From Botryllus schlosseri (Eukaryota), in assembly GCA_051294905.1 (NCBI GenBank), contig CM119371.1, forward strand, positions 310,001 through 374,000: a stretch of DNA of 64,000 nucleotides, in the 5' to 3' direction. The stretch's first letter is position 1. Each line of letters starts with the position of its first letter. The notes beneath the pieces are model-generated. The model saw only the letters and a list, made by a program, of their open reading frames with translations. It was not told where the DNA came from and made no database searches. Made by a program: the position numbers and the translations under genes. Positions 45,736 to 59,058 of this stretch are shown here, piece after piece.

Positions 45736-48058
45736 AATATAAAACTTCCAACTCAGTATCGAGATCATTTGCAATCTTCCAGACTTTCTGCAATTCGTTT
45801 CCTTTCAACATATCATCTTTATCGTAATATATCAATGTTACTTTCTTCAAATTTGAGTTGTTGACGAGAGACGAAATCTCATCGAGTGAAGGACGATATT
45901 CTTCTTCGAATATGCATCTGATATATTCGATCTGCGGTGAGAAATTATGACTATTAGTACTATGTCTTACAATTATGCTTACCACTGTGGTTGACTATTT
46001 GACAAGGGGCCATGATGTTTTACAATATACTTTAGATCATGGGTGTCAAACATACGGCCCACGGGCCGCATCCGGCCCTCTAGGATATTCTGAAAAAATG
46101 GCTGTATTATCTGGCACATTTCTAACAAATGTCGAGATTTTTACTACGAAACACTTCCACTCTCCCAAGACAGAAAATGTCGAGCATGTTCATAGTAGAG
46201 GTCGACCGATATTGATTTTGACAGGCCGATACCGATATATATCGGTACACTCACAAGGCTGATACCGATATCATAGGCCAATATTAATACAGAAGGAGCA
46301 GAAAACAATTTCACCAAAAATATTATATATTAAGCAAGAGAGCACTTGTTCATGCTACAGAAAGCAGAAAAACAAACGAGAAAACTGCAATTGAAAACAA
46401 TTATTGCTTTATTGTAATTTGGGATAACCCAAAAAGCAAAACATGATACATTATTAGGGATTATTCCAGGAAAGGTAGATTGTAATGCAGAAAGCATATA
46501 TTTTCTCTGCATGCTCACCCAGTTAAACTCGTCCTGCATGGTTAAATCAGTCATATATCGCCTTTTGCGTCGTAGATTTCTTGTGATTGAGAACACAGAG
46601 CATTGAATTTCCGAAATTTTTGAATTTTTTTAAAATATAAAATATCGGCCGCGAAGCGGGAAAGCTCTAAATATCGGCTTCGATAATCGGCCATGTCGAT
46701 AATCGGTCGACCTCTAGTTCATAGGCCAAATTATAACCATCCGACAGTGGTGTTGAGGTTAGACTGTAGAGAACATCAGCAACAAGTCAATGCAATTGAC
46801 AATAGTATTGCCATATGCCCTCTTTTTTGAAAGTGTTCCTGTTTTGGAAATTTTGGTTGAATGTATGTGAAAATTCAACTGAGAAATTGGAAATGGGTAC
46901 TGGAGAAACTGTCCGGCGGGTCTTTCGTGAGCTGAGCCAAAAAGGTGACCTTTTTTTATTCAATCAACTACAAACTTGGAATAAATTTACCAATTTTTCC
47001 GGATTTCACTCCTGTATTGTAAGTCTGAATTTTTTTTAAAAGGTTTTTTTTTCAAACTCCCAAAATATGGTTACCCTAATTGACACTCACTTCAGAGAAG
47101 GCAAAAAAGTGCTCAGTGAGTTCACAGTTTTATGGAAAAACGGACCACAAAGTATAGTTTTCTGCAGAAGTGGATAATATAATTGTGACACCAAAATATA
47201 ATTTAAATATCTGTGGTCGCACTCCTTTTTCGCTTATGACTCAACATCTCCTTGGCTGCCGGAGAAACCCGAATCGCGATGTAAAAACGATGAACCAAAT
47301 TTCAACGTCTAAGTTTACGTTAAATCGCTTGTATTCCTCACAACGCATAAACAGGACTATATTGTCAGATTCCGGCAAAAACAAAGCTATCATTGCAATA
47401 TGAGAACATATATTGTCGGTGAAGCCGCTGTTTTAGCAATTTATGAAACTATTTAACCGGCCAATCATCGTAATTTCGCCAAGTCGGTATTTTGCGAATA
47501 AAGGTATTGATGGAATAGAACCAGATTGCCCGTGATATAACGCAATTATTATAATGCGTATAAGTTTTATAATTGAGTATTCAAGTGAAAAGCAAGGGTA
47601 TTGATTTAGAGGAAATATTTTGGAATCATTTGACTGGTCCGGCCCGCGAGTGCTCTGAAGGGTTGAATCCTACCCGTGACGCCAGTTGAGTTTGACACCC
47701 CTGCTTAAGATGAACAAATTGCCGGGAACCACAAACTCTGCAACTGCGGTGGATATCTCGGGCATGGAATATAAGTTAATTCATGTGGAGGGGACTCATA
47801 TTCTGCGGCAGAATTCAATGATAAACGTGCGATGGTGGGAGAAGAACGTTCTATATATCCAATGCAACTAATACTGGATGATAAGTACTACCTTCTTTTG
47901 CTGACAAGCTTCTAACATCTTCCTGAATTCATCTGCTTTCTCAACGTAAAACATTGCATGGATATGAATGGGAACGGAAATTGCTCTCCCGCGCTCCAAA
48001 ATTAGTTTGTAATCATCTACGGGTATCTGGCCATTCACGGCAATATCCAGGAGATCCA
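45736..48058 (-). CDS. Probable host-gene exons of unknown product (~48058-47892 and 45931-45736); the upstream exon is cut by the hAT remnant
   Basis: Protein-like open frames LDLLDIAVNGQIPVDDYKLILERG...EACQQKK|gt and ag|IEYIRCIFEEEYRPSLDEISSLV...ELEVLY|gtgagt with matching phase 0. No family recognised. Confidence 0.45.
46038..47703. mobile_element. Buster-type non-autonomous element with two nested MITEs (46196-46716 and 46803-47078)
   Basis: CATGGGTGTCAAAC...GTTTGACACCCCTG with TSD ctttagat/cttaagat. Confidence 0.82.
46196..46716. mobile_element. hAT-type MITE with CCGATA repeats
   Basis: 15-bp perfect TIR TAGAGGTCGACCGAT and perfect TSD GTTCATAG. Confidence 0.93.
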
Positions 48059-48192
48059 ATTGCTCTCTCGCGTCGTACAATTCAGCGTCGGCAAGATGAT
48101 ATCGCCAAACAGTTGACGATCTCCCTGCAGACAAAGGTTAATGAGGAAGCAACTTTATTTTCACTGGCTATCGACGAATCGACTGACATTAA

Positions 48193-48408
48193 AGGGGCAC
48201 TGCGCTCAAAAAATGATGTGGTCTCAAATTGAAGAGTAGAACGAAAAAAAAATTTTGGCCGCAGCCGTTTTCTTCAGAACGCCACCGTAATGGAGCTGCA
48301 ATTTATTGAAATTTCCAGAGTTGCAGCAGTCGCGGCTCCGGATAATCTCTTAACCCGTAACATGGCACGATGACTTCATCGTCGCACTTGCTCGACGCGA
48401 TTACGCAG
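48193..48408 (+). repeat. Left TIR of the Kolobok (216 bp; degenerate extension to ~48470)
   Basis: Reverse complement of 56832-57047 with one mismatch seen (ataatCtctt vs ataatAtctt). After an 8-bp indel, weaker similarity continues for ~60 bp. Confidence 0.95.
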
Positions 48409-48818
48409 AGGACGAACTTTAGATAGTTGTCAGTCGATGTTATGAATGACTCATGTCTTGCACACCAAGGCGGCGCTCAACGTACGGTGTTAGGTCAGGA
48501 GGATTTGTGTCTGGAGCTTGTCACGACTCTATAGTATTTGCCAGTTGAATGATACTGAGATGCCGTTACAGTTGTATATTGATGCAGATACAGCTGTCAT
48601 TTTCAAGATGTATTATTGACTGCACAGTGCACAACCTTTGGAGTAGTGGTCTTGCGGAAGAGACAGACACATGATATTTTGCATCATTTACCCATGGCAT
48701 AGCAACTGTCTTGATACTGTCTAGTTTACTTGTTCAAGACACAGATGTATAGATAATCAACACGAAAATTTCATTCTCATCAAAGTTCCAATATTGTTGT
48801 GGAATTTTTTGTCGTAAC

Positions 48819-51800
48819 TAGGGTTCCGGTAAATATCAATTTGCCTCTGATTCGAAGCGATAAAATCGATCCATAATAAAAACCATGATTTTTTTGATTT
48901 TTATTACTATTTTTACTTAGAACAACTGAAACAACAACAACAATGAGTTTGAGACGATTGAAAATCATCTAAATGAAGGTGCTGCTGCAAATCTCATCAA
49001 CTGAATAATTCGAGGCTCTGAATCTTCATCTGCGTACTGGAAAATATTCAACCCAGCAGAGAAATGTTGGTGACTAGGATTGTCCGATATCTGTTCTAGT
49101 ACCAATCCGACATGTTGCGTCAAATCAGCAGCATCCGTAACGGTTGCATCTTCAGTAGCATCTTCATCATGAGCATAGCTGTTGATGTCTGGAGTGGTCT
49201 CGGCCAGCAAGGCGTTGATTTTTCTCATCGCCTTTTCCACTTTGCCAGTTCCAGAGTCAGTATCCATGAAGTGATCTTTCACTCGAAGCATAACTTCAAG
49301 ATTTGTTTGTGTTAGGCGATTGCGACTCTTGGTTGCAGTTGCTGCCGCAGATGACCAAAGCCTCTCACAAGACGCAGCATGTGGAACGCACGAAAGAACA
49401 GTCCTGGCGAGTTTTGAAAGTTCCGGAGAAAGAACAGCTAAATCCTTCCAGAATAATGCCGGCCGTGCCGTTAAAAACGGTACCCAGATAGTGGATTCTG
49501 CATCAAAAACTCCTAAAAAAAAATCAGGGTAATATCAGAAACGTGCAGTGATAGGTGTGCAGTGTGCACTGGTAGACTCACCTTCTTTACAATCATAGTC
49601 GAACCAGTGTTTGATGAGGTTAGAAGCAGATTCATCATTGAAGCTTGGTTCTATTTTTGAAAATATTTTTTTGGCGAGATCCCGAACAAGCCTTTTGCCA
49701 GTCATGTTCAAGCCACAGCCTCTAACTCGGGGATCTAGAACCCAGGCCACTAGATGATGGTCCTCGACATAGTTTTCTGTTCTTCGTTGCATCTTTGATA
49801 AAACCAGACTCTTCTCATCAGCATCCAGAGCGGTAGTCTTTTTTATCTCAAGCTTGAGCCACATCCAGCCTGATAGGATTAGCCCAGCGGAAGTATTGTC
49901 CAATTCTGAGATGGCTGTAAAAATGCAAGATTTACGATTCAAACATTTCACCTGTTAACTCTTAGTTAAATGTTGGGGAGTAAAAAGAACTACAATCCTT
50001 GTTGTTTCCATTAATAATCAAGATGTTCAAATTGATCATGTATTGTGGTGTAGCGGTAATATGGTAATATCAGTTTATCATCAAGGAATGCAACTTATTT
50101 ACAATATAATTTGAATGAAGTAGCATAGTTATGATTGCCAGTGTCGAACAGTCGTCTCGTTACTTTTTTGCTCAGAGTGTTGTTCAACTGCCTCAATATG
50201 AAGTTTTTCAGCAACTAACCAGTAATGACATAATATGGCTTGAGTAGACCATAGATCGCTTTAGTATCTTCCCAAAATTTCTTATCATTGATGATTGTTC
50301 GGACAGTACATGCACTCGCTGTATTCAAGTGCGGTTTCGACGTTTCTTGAACAAACACAACCTTCAAAATAAGATGACTTCATGCAAATGTCACAGAAAT
50401 CTATGAATTACTTACTTGAATAGCTGTTTCAACATTTATGACATGCTTCAATGTTTCAGAGAAGGAATACCATCTTGACTCGCTAGGTAACCACATGGGG
50501 ATCTTTTCCCGGCCCATATATCGAGAGATTGAGCTACGGAGAGCAACTGATCGTCGGATGAAAGATGCAACAGTGATCACCTTTTCAACTATATTCCACA
50601 CACGACTGATGCCCATCAGGTCTTTAACGAGAAGATTCGACTGGTGAGCCAGACATGCACCTGTCAAGGTTATGCCCGATTCAGAATTCTGAAAAACAAA
50701 TCTCATGGTTATACTAACTCCAAAAACAATGATTACTATTAAAACCAAATGATACAGACATACCTGCACGAGCAATCGTCTCGCTTTCACATAAGCGCTG
50801 GCGCTATCAGACACAAAGTTGAGCAATAGTTTTCCATTGGATTTCATTCCAAGCAGTTCTTTTGCTTTTTGAGTGACATCTTGCACAATGTCTTCACTTC
50901 GTTTGGTTGGATCGGAGGGTTCAACCGCTAACAGTTTCTTTGAACCCAACTCATTAACAATGATCCAACTTGAAAAGCTGCAAAATAGAATTTGAGCATG
51001 TTTTATATTACCTAGATGAGATTTGCTATCAGACAGGCATGCATATTATGCAACATACTTTTGACTGGAACTACTTGTCCATGTGTCACTAACAATCGTC
51101 AGAGTATGAGCATTATTGACAAATTGTTCAATTGCAGTGGATACTTTTGAGTTGAGACCACATAGTATGGAGCCGGATGCCTGTTCTGCGCTCGGCAAAT
51201 TAAAATCTGGTCGCAACGAATGACAAAATCGTCTGAAATGCTCGTTGTTTAGCTGATTCCAAGGTATATTTCCTGTGTAAAATAAAACATGATGCGGGAT
51301 ATTATCACTAAAAAATGAATGTCCAAATGCATGAATACCTGAGATAAATGACAGAACAAGCGACTCGTAACTGGAATATTCTTGGTTCTTCGTCAAGGGT
51401 CTAGTCACATAGTTGGTTATAGTCTTCTGTCCAGAAAAATCTTGCTGCAGCGCATTACTAGAGCCTGGGCCTTCATCAGATTCTTGGAACTCTGACCTCA
51501 ACTTCTGAGGCGTCTTCTTGCAAGTCTAGAGATACAATAATCCACACTTGATTTATTAGACTCCATGACTGAGAAGGTTCAAGCCGTCAATGGAGCGTGT
51601 ACTTTCTTATACACAGCATGACCATGACAAACCACGGTTGCCGATATTAATATTGATTCATCACTACGGTATAGTGCGATCATTTATCACCCATACCCGT
51701 TGCCTCGAAGACTACCACACCTTACCCTAGCCCCAAACCTATCCTATCTACAATACCCCAGCCATAATTGCATGATGATACGTAACATCATAACCCTATA

Positions 51801-52585
51801 ATTATTGACGCCATAAGCTGAGACATGTTCATGGGGAACACTAGCTATTGATAATCTTGTAGTTGTGGATGATGAAGTAGGCTCAAAAGATGTTGTCTAG
51901 GACTATGTGCTAAGTATCTTTCGGTTGACGCGTTGCAGATCAGATATTACCACATCAAGCATAAGCAAGGGTTTTTAGATATGCAAAGAGAATTCGGTAG
52001 CAGTGCTGTGCCCATACCCTGTCAACGTATCACCATGCACATACAGTATTCAAGCGATTACATGAATTGGATTCACTCATAATACAGTAACATGGTATCT
52101 TACCTGCGTATGAGTTTTCATTCTGCTTACTTGACCCATCATATCAGCACCGCAATAAATGCAAACAGCTCTTTTGCTTCGCTTTGGCATTAGAGATGCG
52201 GGAATCTCCCGATATATACTCCAGATTGAGTTTCGTTTTCGCCCTCCCACCATCGCCTTGTAAACAGCAGCACCACGGACACACCGAATCAACAACAAAG
52301 CTCAAGAACTGGCTGATTACCGTCACCGCCTATTGCGAGCACTGTGTTCCCGCCTTGCCCTCGATTCGCTAAACCGTGCCGGTACCGGTGACGAAAAACG
52401 ATGTCCGGGTTGTGTCAATATACATTGGTTGTCCAAAAAATATATTCACGCGTCTTTTTAAAAATAAAAAATAAAAACCAAAAAATCATTTATATCAAAA
52501 CGGTAAAATTAAAATCAAAAATCAAAGGAAAAATCATGATTTAATCACACTGATTTAAATCAGCCTGATATTTACCAGAACCCTA
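48819..52585 (-). mobile_element. Autonomous-looking hAT (Ac-type) transposon nested in the Kolobok, 3767 bp
   Basis: 20-bp TIRs TAGGGTTC(C/T)GGTAAATATCA. Perfect 8-bp TSD GTCGTAAC at 48811-48818 and 52586-52593. A/T-rich subterminal AAATCA-type repeats. Encodes a full transposase. Confidence 0.95.
48965..52253 (-). CDS. hAT transposase (BED zinc finger, DUF659-like core, hAT C-terminal dimerisation region), 8 exons, 686 aa, apparently intact
   Basis: Exons 52253-52104, 51525-51339, 51272-51059, 50977-50764, 50688-50416, 50361-50220, 49914-49582 and 49512-48965 are all GT-AG, total 2061 nt, no stop seen. BED finger IW..Y...CIYC...MKTHTQTC. Core motifs TIVSDTWT, FVSDSASAY, CLAHQSNL, SESRWYS, LDPR and ASCERLWS...KSRNRL. 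Confidence 0.9.
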
Positions 52586-52698
52586 GTCGTAACATTGTTG
52601 TTCTCAGTTTCACAAACGAATCTTCTGTCTCCATCAGTTCATTCATGCAATTCCTTTGACACGTAGATATCGTAAAATTTGTTAAAATTATTAATGGT

Positions 52699-53642
52699 AT
52701 GGAAGAAGATCTTGTTGATGAATTAACTTCTGATGAAGATACAGATGTAGAAGATTTCGATGATATCACGATATTTGGTGAGAGCCTGCCGTATCAATTC
52801 GAGCCACAATATTCAGAGGAGGAATTCGCCCGTCTTGTTGCAACTCAAGAAGCACAAACTCATGTCTCTGTAAGTATTGTACCTGTGTTTCTTGAATGCA
52901 ATTTATCAATCTCATTGTATTGGTCAAAGGAATCGTCAGAAAACCAGAGTCAACTTCGGACACTTGACAACAATGAATGGTGCAGTTGCTTGAACTGTGC
53001 ATCCATGACAAACCAGAATGAACGCGTCTGCTGCAGGGAAATACAACAAATAATGTAGCTTCTGGGGAATGGAGGGTCGACTTGCATAACAGAACATGAC
53101 GATTTTCTCGTACATATACATCCCTCCATTCTTGAAACGTTTTTCAAAGTGAACAGGAAAAATTGGAATAATAACAATCAACCACATGGTCCTGGCAGAA
53201 GGCTTTCTAACAAGTGGGTCCTAGAACATTTTGTTTGTGTTGTTTAGTATTGGACTTATATGTATGCGACAGGGTCTTGGGACTTATGACATGGTTCCTG
53301 GATATAAACGGCAATCTCCTGCATTCTTTACATTTTCTCGCATGCTTTTATATAAATGCCTACACTTTATAAATTGGGAGCATTATACTGTCATATATAT
53401 GCTGCTATTACTTTTCAGCATTATTTTTATTGCTGCAATATACTTTGATTTTTTCCAATTGCAGACAATATCGCTTGGTGTCTTATCGACACATACTGGA
53501 ATGGATTATTGATGGCGACGTTTTGGGTAGCAAAAACAGGATGCCCTTGCCAGCCTGCATCGTGACTGCTATAAGGAAAAAGTACCCTAGTGATGATGGA
53601 CTGTATGTCGGTTTCAAATGGCCGATAGAAAACGAACTGTGA
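52699..53642 (+). pseudogene. KolX-like accessory gene (homolog of the P2X7 cytoplasmic 'ballast' domain), 3 exons (52699-52869, 52930-53213, 53465-53642), ~210 codons with an in-frame TAG at 53056-53058
   Basis: Acidic N-terminus with PYQFEP, then WCSCLNC...ERVCCREI...CITEHDDF and NKQYRLVSYRHILEWI...LGSKNRMPLPACIVTAIRKKYPSDDGLYVGFK, the motif series of the P2RX7 C-terminal/KolX family. Introns are GT-AG. The gene lies tail-to-tail with the transposase. Confidence 0.87.
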
Positions 53643-53942
53643 TTGATAACACTGCGGCTATGCTATATAAGTCGAAATCAGTTCTGTTGCTGTATTATTA
53701 CACAGTGAACTGGAACTGTTTGCATTCTATATTCCACGAATGCCTGCAGGGCCTGATACATCAAGACTTACTCGTTATTTATTAAAATTTATTAAAATAA
53801 ATAATAAAAAAGAAACATCAAAGGACTTTATAGCCAGGGTATTACAACGGGGCAGTCAGGCAGTGTGGAAGAATGAAATTGAGCTATTTAGCACTGCACC
53901 ACATTCCATTCAACTTGAAGATAGGGATTAGTAAGTCACGTT

Positions 53943-55662
53943 CTAGAACGACGTTGAAAGTAATTCCTCTTTAGAGGGGGCTGGTTCTGGTGCAATGCTG
54001 ACTGGATGCACACTTCTTGAAATGTTACTGGGAAAGTTGATGCCAGTGCAATTCTCAGTAGTTCGCCTCAAAAGCTCTCTCGCATAGTGGTTCGTCTTCT
54101 TTTCATACATGTTTTTCAAGATCCACTCTTTTGCTGACCGAGAGTAACATTTTTTGTATCGTGGAGCACCTGCTTAAACAAATAAAAAGTAAGTAGTATC
54201 GTGGAGCACCTGCTTAAACAAATAAAAAGTAAGTAACTAAGTACCTTGACTTGCAAACATTTCATCTGTACAGCAAACCTGCTCGTGTCACCGCCTGAAA
54301 TCTACCAACATTCTCATTGTGGTCCAGGACAGCCAATTTGGTTCGTGCAAGCATCGTGTCATAAGTAAAATGAAGACGTTTAGGTGCAAATTTCAATATG
54401 ACGTTGTGATAAACTTCCAATGATCCTAAAAAAGTAAGGTGTGAATTGTAATGATCTGACCATGCTCCGAAAACTGGTGTGCAGATGTGATGAGTCAAAA
54501 AATTACCAAAAAATTACCAGTATGTTTGAACAGAGTCATCTGCTCCAAATCCCGGATCAAACTTTTGTTTTCTATCAAAGATTTCAATGCTTTGAAACTA
54601 GGAGATCCACATTGCAACCATCTAGTTCTTAGGCACTGATCCCCAGTCAAAGTGCCATGGCTGCAGGAATATGTCTCCCCGTCAACTGTCCACTCATGTT
54701 CGCCGGTGATGTGATGCAGAAGAGATAACCATCTTCTTTTTAGCACCTGCAATTGCATATTGTTATATAAAAAGTTCCTAATTTGTGATGTCAGACATAG
54801 TTGATATGTAGACTTACACTGCTATCTTGACCACAATACTGACAGCACCACCACAAGTGATTAGTGATGCTTCTTGTCCATAGTAGCAAGTCTTCCATAC
54901 CTTTCTTCTTACCCAGAGACACCAACTTTTTTTTCAGTCCTGAGAAACGGTTAGTAAGGCAAAAGAAGATTCAAATAATAACAGTATTCAGTTACCTTTG
55001 CAGACATGCCACACATCAAACTGGTGATTGATTGATGGATATTTATCCTTCAACAATTTCCTGATGCTTGGTGCCCGGTCAGTCACAACGGTTTCAATCG
55101 GCAAACCTTGAGCAAGTAATGCATCCAAGGCACGCTCCATACCAACTTTTTCCATTGCAACACTGCTGGAGCACTCTGTTTTTTGAACCAATTCGACGTG
55201 GACAATCTTCTCAGTCTTCTCCTCCATAAATGAATAAACCATATATTTTGCAGAAAACCCAGGTGAGTCCGATCGCCCATCACCCATCAGTGTAATTGGT
55301 TTACATTGACCCTTCATGTCCCGTAAAACATCCTCCATATGTTCCTCATAGTAGGTCGCAATAGTTGGCAAAATGTATTGCGATTGTATTTCATAAAAAC
55401 GACGTTCCGAAATGTAGTTAGTGTCCAGTAATTTGAAAACATCTGCAATATCAGTGTACGTGGCTCCCGAATATATTGTCGCGCCAACAGTAGAAAGGTT
55501 CATTGCCGACATCTTTCTGATTTCTATCTTGGTCGACGAGATTCCTATGGCACTAAACCACTGTCGTCTTAGTGCAATTTCAGAAGGAATTTTATGAAGA
55601 GTATGCGATTCGTCATTCCTTTTGACATCACACGATGTAACGGCACAACTTCTCCATGTCAT
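53943..55662 (-). CDS. Kolobok DDE transposase, 5 exons (55662-54996, 54939-54818, 54746-54518, 54425-54279, 54169-53943), ~463 aa; THAP domain appears truncated
   Basis: All introns are GT-AG and phases join into an open frame. N-terminus is THAP-like (CAVTSC...LHKIP...RRQWFSAIG). Catalytic motifs GDGRSDSPGFSAKY, VVTDRAPSIRK, HQFDVWHVCK, NHLWWCC, HHITGEHEW and KHTG/SLEVYHNVILKFAPKR, then LAVLDHNEN. Confidence 0.88.
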
Positions 55663-56831
55663 TGCAGCTTGCTATAATGTCAATGTATATTCTATATACT
55701 ATTACGAAGACTCTGAGTAGAGCAAGACAATAACGTAGACAAGTGCTTTTCAACCTTTTTGAGCTCCATTCGTACTTTTTTTTTAAAAACAATTCAATTC
55801 GCACCAGCCAGCTGGAATTTATTACACAAAAAGAAAATGAAAAGCTTATCACTTTTTGTATTTGTAGACCTTCCTGTAGGTACAGAGCGTCATTATTTCA
55901 CATTTAGTGTATCGTATTGCTGATTAATCAAATACTAATATCACTGCAGTAGAAAATTCACAGATATCGCACTTCCGCTGTTCTCAAGGTCTTCGTTGCT
56001 TTTTCTGCGGGTATCGTGCAGTTATTTCTTTCGAAGCTTAAAGGGCGAACCCATGAACAATATTCACTCGCAACAATATCACTTTCCACTAAATCGACGT
56101 ATTATGTCAACGCTATATGAATGTGTGCCGAAATTCCAATACTTCGCATTCAAATCAACACTGGCATCGCACACTATTTCCTATAATGTAGGGTTATCAT
56201 ATTTTGGATTCGGGAAAGGAGGACGTTCGCACAAGTACGAACCGTCATACAGGTTGAAAAGCACTTTATTCTGTAGCCGTTTTTCAGAGAAACAGTAATT
56301 TCTTATCCACAACACGAATACCACCAGTCAGGGTTCCCCATGAACATGACAAAATTCATGACATTCAAAATTGGTGGTTCGGGTACTGTAGGAAAATTCA
56401 TCATCCCTAACCAAAATCCAACGGCACGCAAACCTAACCTGAGCCCACAACTCCGCAGCTGACCCTAAAACATATATAATATATTCATTATATTGTAATG
56501 TTACTAATCCCCAAGCCATAATTTTAAGATACTCTCAAACCCTCATCTTATGATTCTCCAACCTGAAGGCGAAACCAATTATGACCGCTCTGAATTTTGA
56601 AATGTTCAGAGGGCACACTAATTGGTGATGGTAATGTTTTATACATAACATAAGAATAGGACATGATCTATTCCTTCCCTCAAGAAATAGAATACACTAG
56701 GCCCGATTACTAGAAAAATCTAGTGACTGAATATCGTCCGTGGAACGCCGTATCTACACCACCTTGGCGTGTTAGACATATTTGCTTCAGAACATCGGCT
56801 GACTTCTATCTGAAGCTCGTCCTCTGCGTGA

Positions 56832-57047
56832 CTGCGTAATCGCGTCGAGCAAGTGCGACGATGAAGTCATCGTGCCATGTTACGGGTTAAGATATTATCC
56901 GGAGCCGCGACTGCTGCAACTCTGGAAATTTCAATAAATTGCAGCTCCATTACGGTGGCGTTCTGAAGAAAACGGCTGCGGCCAAAATTTTTTTTTCGTT
57001 CTACTCTTCAATTTGAGACCACATCATTTTTTGAGCGCAGTGCCCCT
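56832..57047 (-). repeat. Right TIR of the Kolobok (216 bp; degenerate extension to ~56762)
   Basis: Reverse complement of 48193-48408. Confidence 0.95.
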
Positions 57048-59058
57048 TTAAGGACTCTGCACAATTATTGATCTTCATACGCTCTCTGTCTCCAAATTTT
57101 GAGTTCTGCGAAGATCTGCTCTCAATGGAAACACTCTCCACCCGCACTCGTGGTGAAGACATATTTGGGACTGTTAAGAATGCTTGCATTCGCAATGGAT
57201 TAGACTTGAAAAATCTTCGCGGTATTTGTACAGATGGAGCACCTGCAATGCTAGGTAACACAAATGGCTTTGTGACAAGATTTTCAGAATTCGTGTCGAA
57301 AGAGTACGATAATAACCAGCTCACAAACCTTCATTGTATTATCCACCAAGAAGCCCTGAGTGTCAAATCTGTTGCCTTAAGTGACACTTTGAAAGACGTC
57401 AATCGCATCATCTTGTACATTCGTGCAAATGGTCTTCATCATAGGCAATTTCAAGAACTTCTGCAAGAGCGCGAAACGTCGGCAGAAGACATTCTCTACC
57501 ACGCTGCAGTTCGTTGGTTGTCCCAAGGAGACACATCTCGTCGTGTTCTACAGTTGCGAGAAGAAATACTGGAATTTTATTCCACAAAAAATAAAGACTG
57601 CCCCTTACAAAATGAGAGCTTTGTCATATATTTGGCGTTTCTTGTGGATTTTCTGTCCCATGTTAACATTTTAAACCGAAGCCTACAAGGAAAAAAGCAA
57701 CGATATGCACCATGTACAAAAAAGTATCGGATTTTCGTGACAAATGTCGTCTCCTTAAACTTCATATTCAGCAGCGTAATTTTTTCCATTTTACACAACT
57801 TAAGTCTCTCATCGACAGCTGCGAAATAAAGGTAGAAAAGATTCCGATCACTTTATTTTCGGGGATTTTTGATACTGTGTTGCAGGATTTCGCAGATCGT
57901 TTCAAAGATTTCCAAAAAATCTCACATACATTACGACTTGTTGCCTTTCCACACCTGGTGGAAACGGAAAGTGCTCCGCCACACCTTCAGATGGAGCTGT
58001 TGGAATTGAAGAATGATGAGCAGCTTGTGACAAAGTTCTAGTGCGAGGAAAATTTGATTGACACGTGGAAAATGGCCCATGAATATCCACTTTTGCGAGA
58101 ATTGGCTAGAGAAACTCTTGTTATTTTCGGAAGCACTTACGTGTGCGAGTCTGCCTTTTCGCAAATGAAATACATGAAAAACGAGTACCGAACTCGCTTG
58201 CTGAACGGAAACCTAGAGTCGCAACTAAGACTTATGGTGTCGCGTGAGGTTCCCAATTTTGCAAGTTTGTCATCTCGTATGCAAAATCAAGGAAGTCACT
58301 GATTTCAATGTTAGAGACTTTCCTTAAATAAATTCGTTTCAAAATATGTTTGGTATTTATTAGATATGATAAGATTAGTAGATATTAAGTTTTTAAACAA
58401 AACTAAAATGTCTTCCGAGGGCGGCCAAATGTCCTCGTAGGCAATTATACCGCGTCTTTGTGCTAGTGGATTGCACCAAAGTTGCGTGAAATGTGGATTT
58501 CGGCATTAGCGACGGCAATGGGTATGGCTGACTTTATCAACCCAATGACGTTAACGGGTATTTCGGGATTCAAAACGGAAGATTGAGATTTTTTTAGTCA
58601 ACTCACATATGGCTGGCGGCCGTATGGCGTCGAAGTATTCGAAATGCGGCCGTGGACGCCAAAAAGGTTGCCCACCTCTGACCTATACCTATACGCGTGC
58701 GAATAATTGAATACGCAATTTCGTCGGCGACGACGAACCAGTGCTTAAAACGCCCCAATAATTTGTAATCCGTCATTAGTAATCAGACAATCGAAGCAAC
58801 CTCGTTTACGACGTCAATTTCGACACGCTTGCGCTGAGATATACAATCTTTTCTCTCGACCAGACGAGCGAATTCACGTTCTCCTTCTCTTAATTAAATT
58901 GTATTTGCGCCCATTTTATTTACAAAATAATTCTTGAGTTAGTTCCGCGATAGTCTCTTTAATTAGAGGCTTGGAGCGCGAGAAGGACAGTGTGCTTGTG
59001 TATGCCTGCGAATTGAAAGTCATTCCTGCACAACGTGGGCATATCCATTACTCTAACT

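Follow-up and report, generated by a model that had tools for sequence, protein, structure and literature searches.

A private nonsense codon in KolX from a young, inactivated Kolobok transposon copy in Botryllus schlosseri

Introduction

What is the short spliced gene at positions 52699 to 53642 of a 64,000-nucleotide stretch of the Botryllus schlosseri genome, and what might its P2X7-like product do for the mobile element that carries it? We refer to the whole stretch (GenBank assembly GCA_051294905.1, contig CM119371.1, positions 310,001 to 374,000) as the window, and all coordinates below are positions within it. A preliminary description, made from the sequence alone, took the gene to be KolX, the accessory gene of a Kolobok transposon, with kinship to the intracellular domain of P2X7 and a single nonsense codon that had knocked it out. 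Our analysis upholds the identity: the gene is KolX, carried by a young but inactivated copy of a Kolobok cut-and-paste transposon, probably of the Kol0 type. The best explanation, to which we give a probability of roughly 85%, joins this identity to a nonsense change private to the copy; a helper role for KolX is proposed with it, at well under even odds.

The homology between KolX and P2X7, and the proposal that KolX is the origin of the P2X7 ballast domain, were published by Kojima and Bao (2022, PMC9587614). The locus itself matters little, being a decayed copy of a multi-copy transposon whose accessory gene belongs to a family with a P2X7 kinship in print since 2022. What is new is modest and comprises the trans-splicing of KolX, signs of purifying selection between its subfamilies, and a fusion of THAP and KolX in a fish.

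Gene Structure and Protein Family

The KolX gene occupies three exons on the forward strand, with a spliced coding sequence of 633 nt, or 210 codons. The coding part of exon 1 (52699..52869) opens with the ATG at 52699 and encodes an acidic N-terminus, in which 19 of 57 residues are Asp or Glu, together with a conserved PYxFEP motif. Intron 1 (52870..52929, 60 nt, GT..AG) is in frame, free of stops, and partly retained in RNA. Exon 2 (52930..53213) carries the cysteine clusters WCSCLNC, VCC (as VCCRE), and CITEH, and is followed by intron 2 (53214..53464, 251 nt, GT..AG), which splits a Lys codon between AA and A. Exon 3 (53465..53642) encodes the YRLVSYR...LPAC...IRKKYP...YVGF tail, found in the window as YRLVSYRHILEW...LGSKNRMPLPACIVTAIRKKYPSDDGLYVGF, and ends in a TGA stop. 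The cysteine motifs and the tail had all been picked out in the preliminary description, and all are present. An out-of-frame ATG lies 5 nt upstream of the KolX start and opens a 10-codon overlapping frame, MVWKKILLMN (window 52694-52726), so that KolX translation would need leaky scanning.

Membership of the P2X7 family is supported at both ends of the protein. Exons 1-2 (with an X at the stop) and exon 3 were scored separately against Pfam P2RX7_C (PF20478, curated cut-off 23.5 bits) and reached 26.4 and 26.8 bits, respectively. With exon 3 as query, rat P2X7 itself is matched (6u9v, residues 567-597, E 0.0063), and a phmmer search of the PDB with exons 1-2 gave chance rows only (E 0.12 and above). 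The homolog search with the protein of exons 1-2 returned a single match, which belongs to the same family but is a translation read through unspliced sequence, and ESM Atlas returned P2RX7_C clusters only. When exon 2 was searched exhaustively without a profile, 158 proteins came up at E <=0.001; of the best 150 listed, 32 have both cysteine motifs and were on that ground counted as full-length. Among these listed full-length relatives, the nearest belong to a crinoid, a loach, a limpet, and a sea squirt and bear names such as 'P2X purinoceptor 7-like'.

The spliced product of an intact sister copy (L002) is 40% identical to a 214-aa crinoid protein (P0017) over 202 residues, with an E-value of 1.5e-52, and 49% identical to the sea-squirt protein. 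Since the relatives align unbroken across both splice junctions, homology confirms the gene model. In an alignment of 32 proteins, seven Cys and one Pro are invariant, and nine further positions (W, E, F, R, Y, R, G, V, and R) are nearly so. The window protein keeps all eight of the former and all nine of the latter, with C72, C74, C77, C88, C89, C106, and C180 filling every invariant Cys column. The encoded KolX protein has three parts, namely an acidic N-terminus, the PYxFEP motif, and a P2X7-type 'ballast' domain with seven invariant cysteines.

The fold was approached through the 40%-identical crinoid relative P0017, for which, rather than for the window protein, an AlphaFold2 model was made (mean pLDDT 84.2). 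In Foldseek, the top 14 rows for this model were all P2X7, with probabilities of 0.97-1.00 and weak E-values (0.017-0.15). VIA-align superposed the model on P2X7 with Z 9.8-10.8 and an rmsd of 3.0-3.6 Å over 116-120 residues, the next, unrelated chain reaching Z 2.4, and residues 58-210 of the model superpose on P2X7 419/472-595. By way of this relative, the modeled P2X7 ballast fold is common to KolX.

Comparison with Known Ballast Proteins and Zinc Ligands

The ballast domain of P2X7 (PDB 6u9v, 6u9w, 8tr5, 9e3m, and others) is thus like KolX in fold (Z about 10.5 for the 40%-identical relative), and it is also alike in the clusters WCxCxxC, CC, CIT, and PxC and in R546, Y550, R578, and F/Y581-P582. 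The P2X7 domain is the tail of an ion channel, whereas KolX is predicted to be a free-standing soluble protein. KolX also has an extra acidic N-terminus with the PYxFEP motif, and it has lost H547, R574, K583, and the eighth cysteine (C573, replaced by Ile). Fish Nanor and Nanor-like proteins (PTHR36981; Rump 2020, PMC7016195) are likewise small, stand-alone ballast proteins of similar length. Nanor, however, is treated as a host gene expressed at the midblastula transition (PMC7016195), whereas the window gene lies in a multi-copy transposon.

For the binding positions, we took the lists of zinc and GDP residues second-hand from Rump 2020 (PMC7016195) and Kojima and Bao 2022 (PMC9587614). Rat P2X7 has three cysteine clusters (PMC7016195), and the P2X7 counterparts of the invariant cysteines hold two zinc ions (PMC7016195, PMC9587614). 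KolX matches all three clusters, the loop in the second, between CC and CITEH, being about 10 residues longer than in P2X7. The putative zinc site of KolX is conserved in sequence, and this half of an earlier expectation, that the zinc- and GDP-binding positions of P2X7 would both be kept, has stood; the nucleotide half fared less well and is taken up with the possible roles of the protein.

Expression and Trans-Splicing

The RNA evidence comes from one raw RNA-seq run, chosen by its species label (X23), and three contig sets. Removal of intron 1 is recorded by 48 reads with 29 start points in X23, and removal of intron 2 by 11 reads with 10 start points, depth within intron 2 being near zero. 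These junction reads supply the spliced transcripts that the preliminary description had called for. Depth over intron 1 is about 1/4 to 1/2 of that in the flanking exon bins of X23, which indicates some in-frame retention. A retained intron 1 would place 20 residues, most of them hydrophobic, after the PYxFEP motif and ahead of the first cysteine cluster.

The 5' end of the message does not come from the element. Sixteen X23 reads begin with the end of the template-switch oligo, continue with ATTGGAGTATTTGGTTGTATTA, and then enter window sequence from 52665. The window has no copy of this 22-letter sequence; the genome has 426, compared with 0 of a reversed control. All 22 letters fall within the 25 of the spliced leader listed as 'Chordata 1' by Bitar et al. 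2013 (PMC3795323, Table 1). Because the leader stands on the reads, is absent from the window, is abundant in the genome, and matches a published leader, we conclude that KolX mRNA is trans-spliced with the host spliced leader at the AG acceptor at 52665..52666 (forward strand). The mature mRNA consists of the leader and then base 52667, 32 nt upstream of the ATG. Intact sister copies yield an mRNA with a trans-spliced leader and both introns removed, encoding a 210-residue protein. By using a host spliced leader, a transposon gene may be able to be expressed without depending on a precise promoter.

The genomic occurrences of the leader are themselves varied. The flanks of the 426 occurrences differ on both sides, and at six leader loci examined (L035-L040), GT follows the leader in three and does not in the other three. 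A GGACC...GGTC hairpin lies 60-100 nt downstream in all six, and Rfam gave no match in these six loci. The occurrences may be leader RNA genes, or they may be in part relics of retro-copied messages.

Genomic Copies and Selection

The KolX region has at least 47 matches in the genome, a lower bound that comes from scoring 40 of 92 candidates. Intact paralogs exist, as had been anticipated: among 29 aligned other copies, KolX is intact in 11, with a start codon, four splice-site dinucleotides, and an open frame. In one further copy the frame is open, but the first donor reads CT; the remaining 17 are broken. A young and expressed family with this share of intact KolX genes offers natural material for a functional test of KolX and of the ballast fold.

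Compared with its subfamily majority over 1101 bp, the window copy has three substitutions, one of which is the nonsense change and one of which is common to a sister copy (L010). With only three substitutions, the window copy is young, and its perfect inverted ends agree with this.

Comparison of the three subfamily majorities gives pN/pS values of 0.22-0.32, nonsynonymous changes being depleted. Subfamilies A and C differ by six nonsynonymous and seven synonymous changes where 79.5% nonsynonymous would be expected (P 0.008, one-sided binomial). The P value is 0.014 for B against C, while the difference between A and B falls short of significance (P 0.09); all three comparisons are small, with 9-14 differences each, and they overlap and are not independent. 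In contrast, the private changes in the youngest subfamily comprise 16 nonsynonymous, three stop, and one synonymous (Fisher P 0.003 for the contrast), and they look neutral or decaying. These counts suggest purifying selection on KolX for as long as the family is active.

Other arrangements of KolX sequences were observed in the genome. Two pairs of copies lie close together in inverted orientation, one 2 kb apart (L023 and L024, G000:C10:2232859-2236969) and one 80 kb apart (G000:C2:26462056-26542659). The former is a local inverted duplication, as judged from an AAG codon and a stop common to both members. The genome has 27 matches above the Pfam cut-off and at least two further KolX families in which the intron position is the same. 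In another family, five identical KolX-like last exons (L055-L059) stand at an exact spacing of 13,395 bp in G000:C18:583619-637342, which suggests a large tandem array containing a KolX-bearing element.

Possible Roles of KolX

Searches of the literature on KolX, on Kolobok with P2X7, and on the ballast domain with transposons found only Kojima and Bao 2022, with no function assigned to KolX. Our tentative preference, drawn from sequence comparisons, is that KolX may serve as a non-catalytic, trans-acting helper of the THAP-DDE transposase, acting at the DNA. A zinc-stabilized KolX adaptor would join the transposase-DNA complex, like the second protein of Harbinger elements, and would be neither an enzyme nor a guanine-nucleotide switch. 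The Myb-like second protein of PIF/Harbinger elements is non-catalytic, is needed in trans, and brings the transposase to the element ends. It resembles KolX in this proposed role and is unrelated to it in fold (Myb/SANT versus zinc-cluster ballast).

The helper role is favored by the pattern of substitutions, by a THAP fusion, and by the gene neighborhood in a limpet. In the fusion, a pipefish protein known as a single predicted isoform from automatic annotation, a THAP domain (E 9.3e-10) is joined through a linker of about 160 residues to a full KolX-like part (E 4.9e-14). In the limpet, a KolX-like gene and a transposase gene lie on one contig with consecutive locus tags. A complex prediction for the limpet KolX-like protein (P0027) and the adjacent transposase (P0168, without its THAP domain) scored 0.01 against a mark of 0.34; no controls were folded beside it and the supplied alignments went unused, which makes the prediction uninformative on binding. 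A separate observation concerns a 457-aa protein with weak matches to P2RX7_C and weak GTPase matches (MMR_HSR1, Septin), all below cut-offs; the pipefish fusion and this protein are the pair P0054 and P0090.

A bolder version, which we hold to be more doubtful, would make KolX an obligatory trans-acting partner of the transposase. It would work through its zinc-cluster domain and acidic PYxFEP tail, would be maintained under selection, and would have a message made independent of insertion site by trans-splicing. If this were true, the P2X7 'ballast' would have begun as a transpososome adaptor, and KolX would be the most tractable handle on the function of the fold.

Alternatively, KolX might be a brake or a host-interaction factor that limits the transposase or counters host silencing, prolonging the life of the family. 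The purifying selection described above and the constant company of the transposase fit any role that benefits the element, and the acidic tail with its short conserved PYxFEP motif resembles a protein docking site. Nothing specific favors this reading, however, and the THAP fusion suggests action at the DNA rather than in the cytoplasm. We regard such a function as unlikely.

Less likely again is a guanine-nucleotide-binding switch, through which transposition would respond to the cellular nucleotide state. The idea draws on the fold in common with the P2X7 ballast, which in rat binds GDP/GTP, with contacts at R546, H547, R574, R578, and K583 (Rump 2020, PMC7016195). In the HMMER alignment of P2X7 with KolX, C572 falls on C180, C573 on Ile, R574 on Val, R578 on R186, F581-P582 on Tyr-Pro, and K583 on Ser. 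R546 would correspond to R152, as inferred from its fixed spacing to a conserved Tyr (Y550/Y156), and H547 to Leu. KolX thus retains two of the five P2X7-type contacts, the arginines R546 and R578, whereas three are changed, and the GTP-binding half of the preliminary description is correspondingly weak. The same contact loss is reported for all ballast-like proteins outside deuterostomes (Rump et al. 2020, PMC7016195), which argues against a switch, while the R-H pair retained in other KolX families of the same genome (RKLRHTSYRN) speaks for one.

The Nonsense Codon of the Window Copy

A TAG at 53056..53058 (forward strand), at residue 100 of 210, is the only in-frame stop in the spliced KolX, just as the preliminary description had placed it, near codon 100, and the KolX frame of the window is therefore not open. 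A private G-to-T change turned Glu100 into this stop; the T is read from the assembly alone and is absent from the reads and contigs examined. In the 29 aligned other loci, the codon is GAG in 26 and AAG in three, with no TAG, which is the sense codon that had been expected of other copies. The stop lies in the variable loop that separates the CC pair from CITEH, and the predicted truncated product would lack cysteines six and seven, along with the entire helical half of the domain. A reading of the TAG as a sense codon was considered and is ruled out, the base being G in all other copies and all reads.

The transcripts examined have G at 53056 in 33 of 33 X23 reads and in all contigs, and so derive from other copies. 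Reads from the window copy were not seen in X23, a run that may come from another individual, and the silence of the window copy is accordingly not proven. This uniform G also invites the suspicion that the TAG is an error of assembly or sequencing and that the KolX frame of the window copy is actually open, all the more as the many near-identical copies of the family make polishing errors possible. The G reads, however, can all derive from the at least 29 other copies, and the other private lesions of the window copy make decay expected. We consider an error improbable, and an open KolX frame would still leave the copy non-autonomous. The private nonsense change, by contrast with what had first been proposed, is not the sole lesion of the copy, which also has a 1.58-kb deletion and an 11-bp frameshift in its transposase gene.

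The Kolobok Element and the Nested hAT

The Kolobok copy spans 48189..57051 (8863 bp, including a nested hAT element) and has the termini 5'-AG...CT-3'. Its ends were set by colinearity with two other genomic copies, which extends up to exactly 48189 and 57051. TTAA target-site duplications flank it on the left (48185..48188) and right (57052..57055), and its terminal inverted repeats of 220 nt (48189..48408 on the forward strand and 56832..57051 on the reverse) are 100% complementary. Such TTAA duplications, 5'-RR..YY-3' ends, and inverted repeats are marks of Kolobok elements (Kojima and Bao 2022, PMC9587614), and together with the PF20478 scores and the seven cysteines they bear out the placing of a KolX with a P2X7 ballast domain within a Kolobok. 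A domesticated host ballast gene merely near transposon debris, for which vertebrate relatives such as P2X7 itself and Nanor give precedents (PMC9587614), can be dismissed, since both the inverted ends and the TTAA duplications enclose the gene and the structure of at least 30 near-identical copies with common ends already refutes it.

The window family resembles the KolX of Kol0 Kolobok elements (type Kolobok-1_XT, PMC9587614) in having a second gene beside a probable DDD/E transposase, TTAA duplications, and RR..YY ends, and in a KolX that resembles P2X7 residues 476-595 with seven conserved cysteines. It differs in residing in a spliced-leader chordate, with an mRNA that is trans-spliced and has two introns, and no tunicate is named in the excerpts examined or in a term search of Kojima and Bao 2022 (PMC9587614). 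The family is a probable member of Kol0.

A remnant of the THAP-DDE transposase gene lies at 53943..55662 on the reverse strand, convergent with KolX and with the two stop codons about 300 bp apart. Its Pfam matches to THAP, Mutator, and MULE are weak and below cut-offs, whereas in a full copy (L034) the encoded protein has an entire THAP finger and, after it, a Mutator-like DDE core. At 37-48% identity, relatives in the databases carry THAP (PF05485) and PF20700. Comparison with the full copy places the junction of a 1.58-kb internal deletion at 55523..55525 (reverse strand), which takes out the later half of the THAP domain together with the exons after that. An identical deletion is found in a sister copy (G000:C1:1066746-1070003), which means that at least one round of copying took place after the deletion arose. 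An 11-bp tandem duplication at 54496..54517 (reverse strand; CAAAAAATTAC twice) shifts the frame of a transposase exon, which is read in split frames in the window versus a single 182-aa frame in the full copy. The whole transposase half of the element is found at only five genomic places. The window copy is non-autonomous and could move, if at all, only with proteins from other copies. A 40-bp tandem duplication at 54156-54235, where the last transposase exon begins, repeats the stretch that encodes AGAPRY.

Within the Kolobok copy sits a hAT element of 3767 bp (48819..52585, reverse strand) with 22-nt inverted ends and an 8-bp duplication, GTCGTAAC, at 48811-48818 and 52586-52593. In-frame stops interrupt its minus-strand frames, among which lies a hAT dimerisation domain (Pfam Dimer_Tnp_hAT, E 4.7e-10). 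The insertion is specific to the window copy, being present in none of the 29 other copies. The last hAT base lies 113 bp upstream of the KolX ATG, and the end of the duplicated target lies 105 bp from it, in line with the spacing of about 105 bp first noted. The hAT was also thought to disrupt the promoter or 5'UTR of KolX. It lies 81 nt upstream of the trans-splice acceptor, and the insertion therefore lies outside the mature 5'UTR, either in upstream sequence that trans-splicing discards or in the promoter region. X23 has no depth across the hAT end (52450-52551), and contigs from two sets (X5 and X8) run upstream of 52587 into uninterrupted Kolobok sequence.

The Kolobok copy in turn interrupts the frame of a further transposase-like gene (window 47927-48188 and 57056-58041). 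Pfam gave no match for the downstream part of the interrupted frame. Across the TTAA, the frame reads ...LAIDESTDI followed by KDSAQLLIFIRSL..., with a DESTD motif that we take to be typical of hAT-type transposases.
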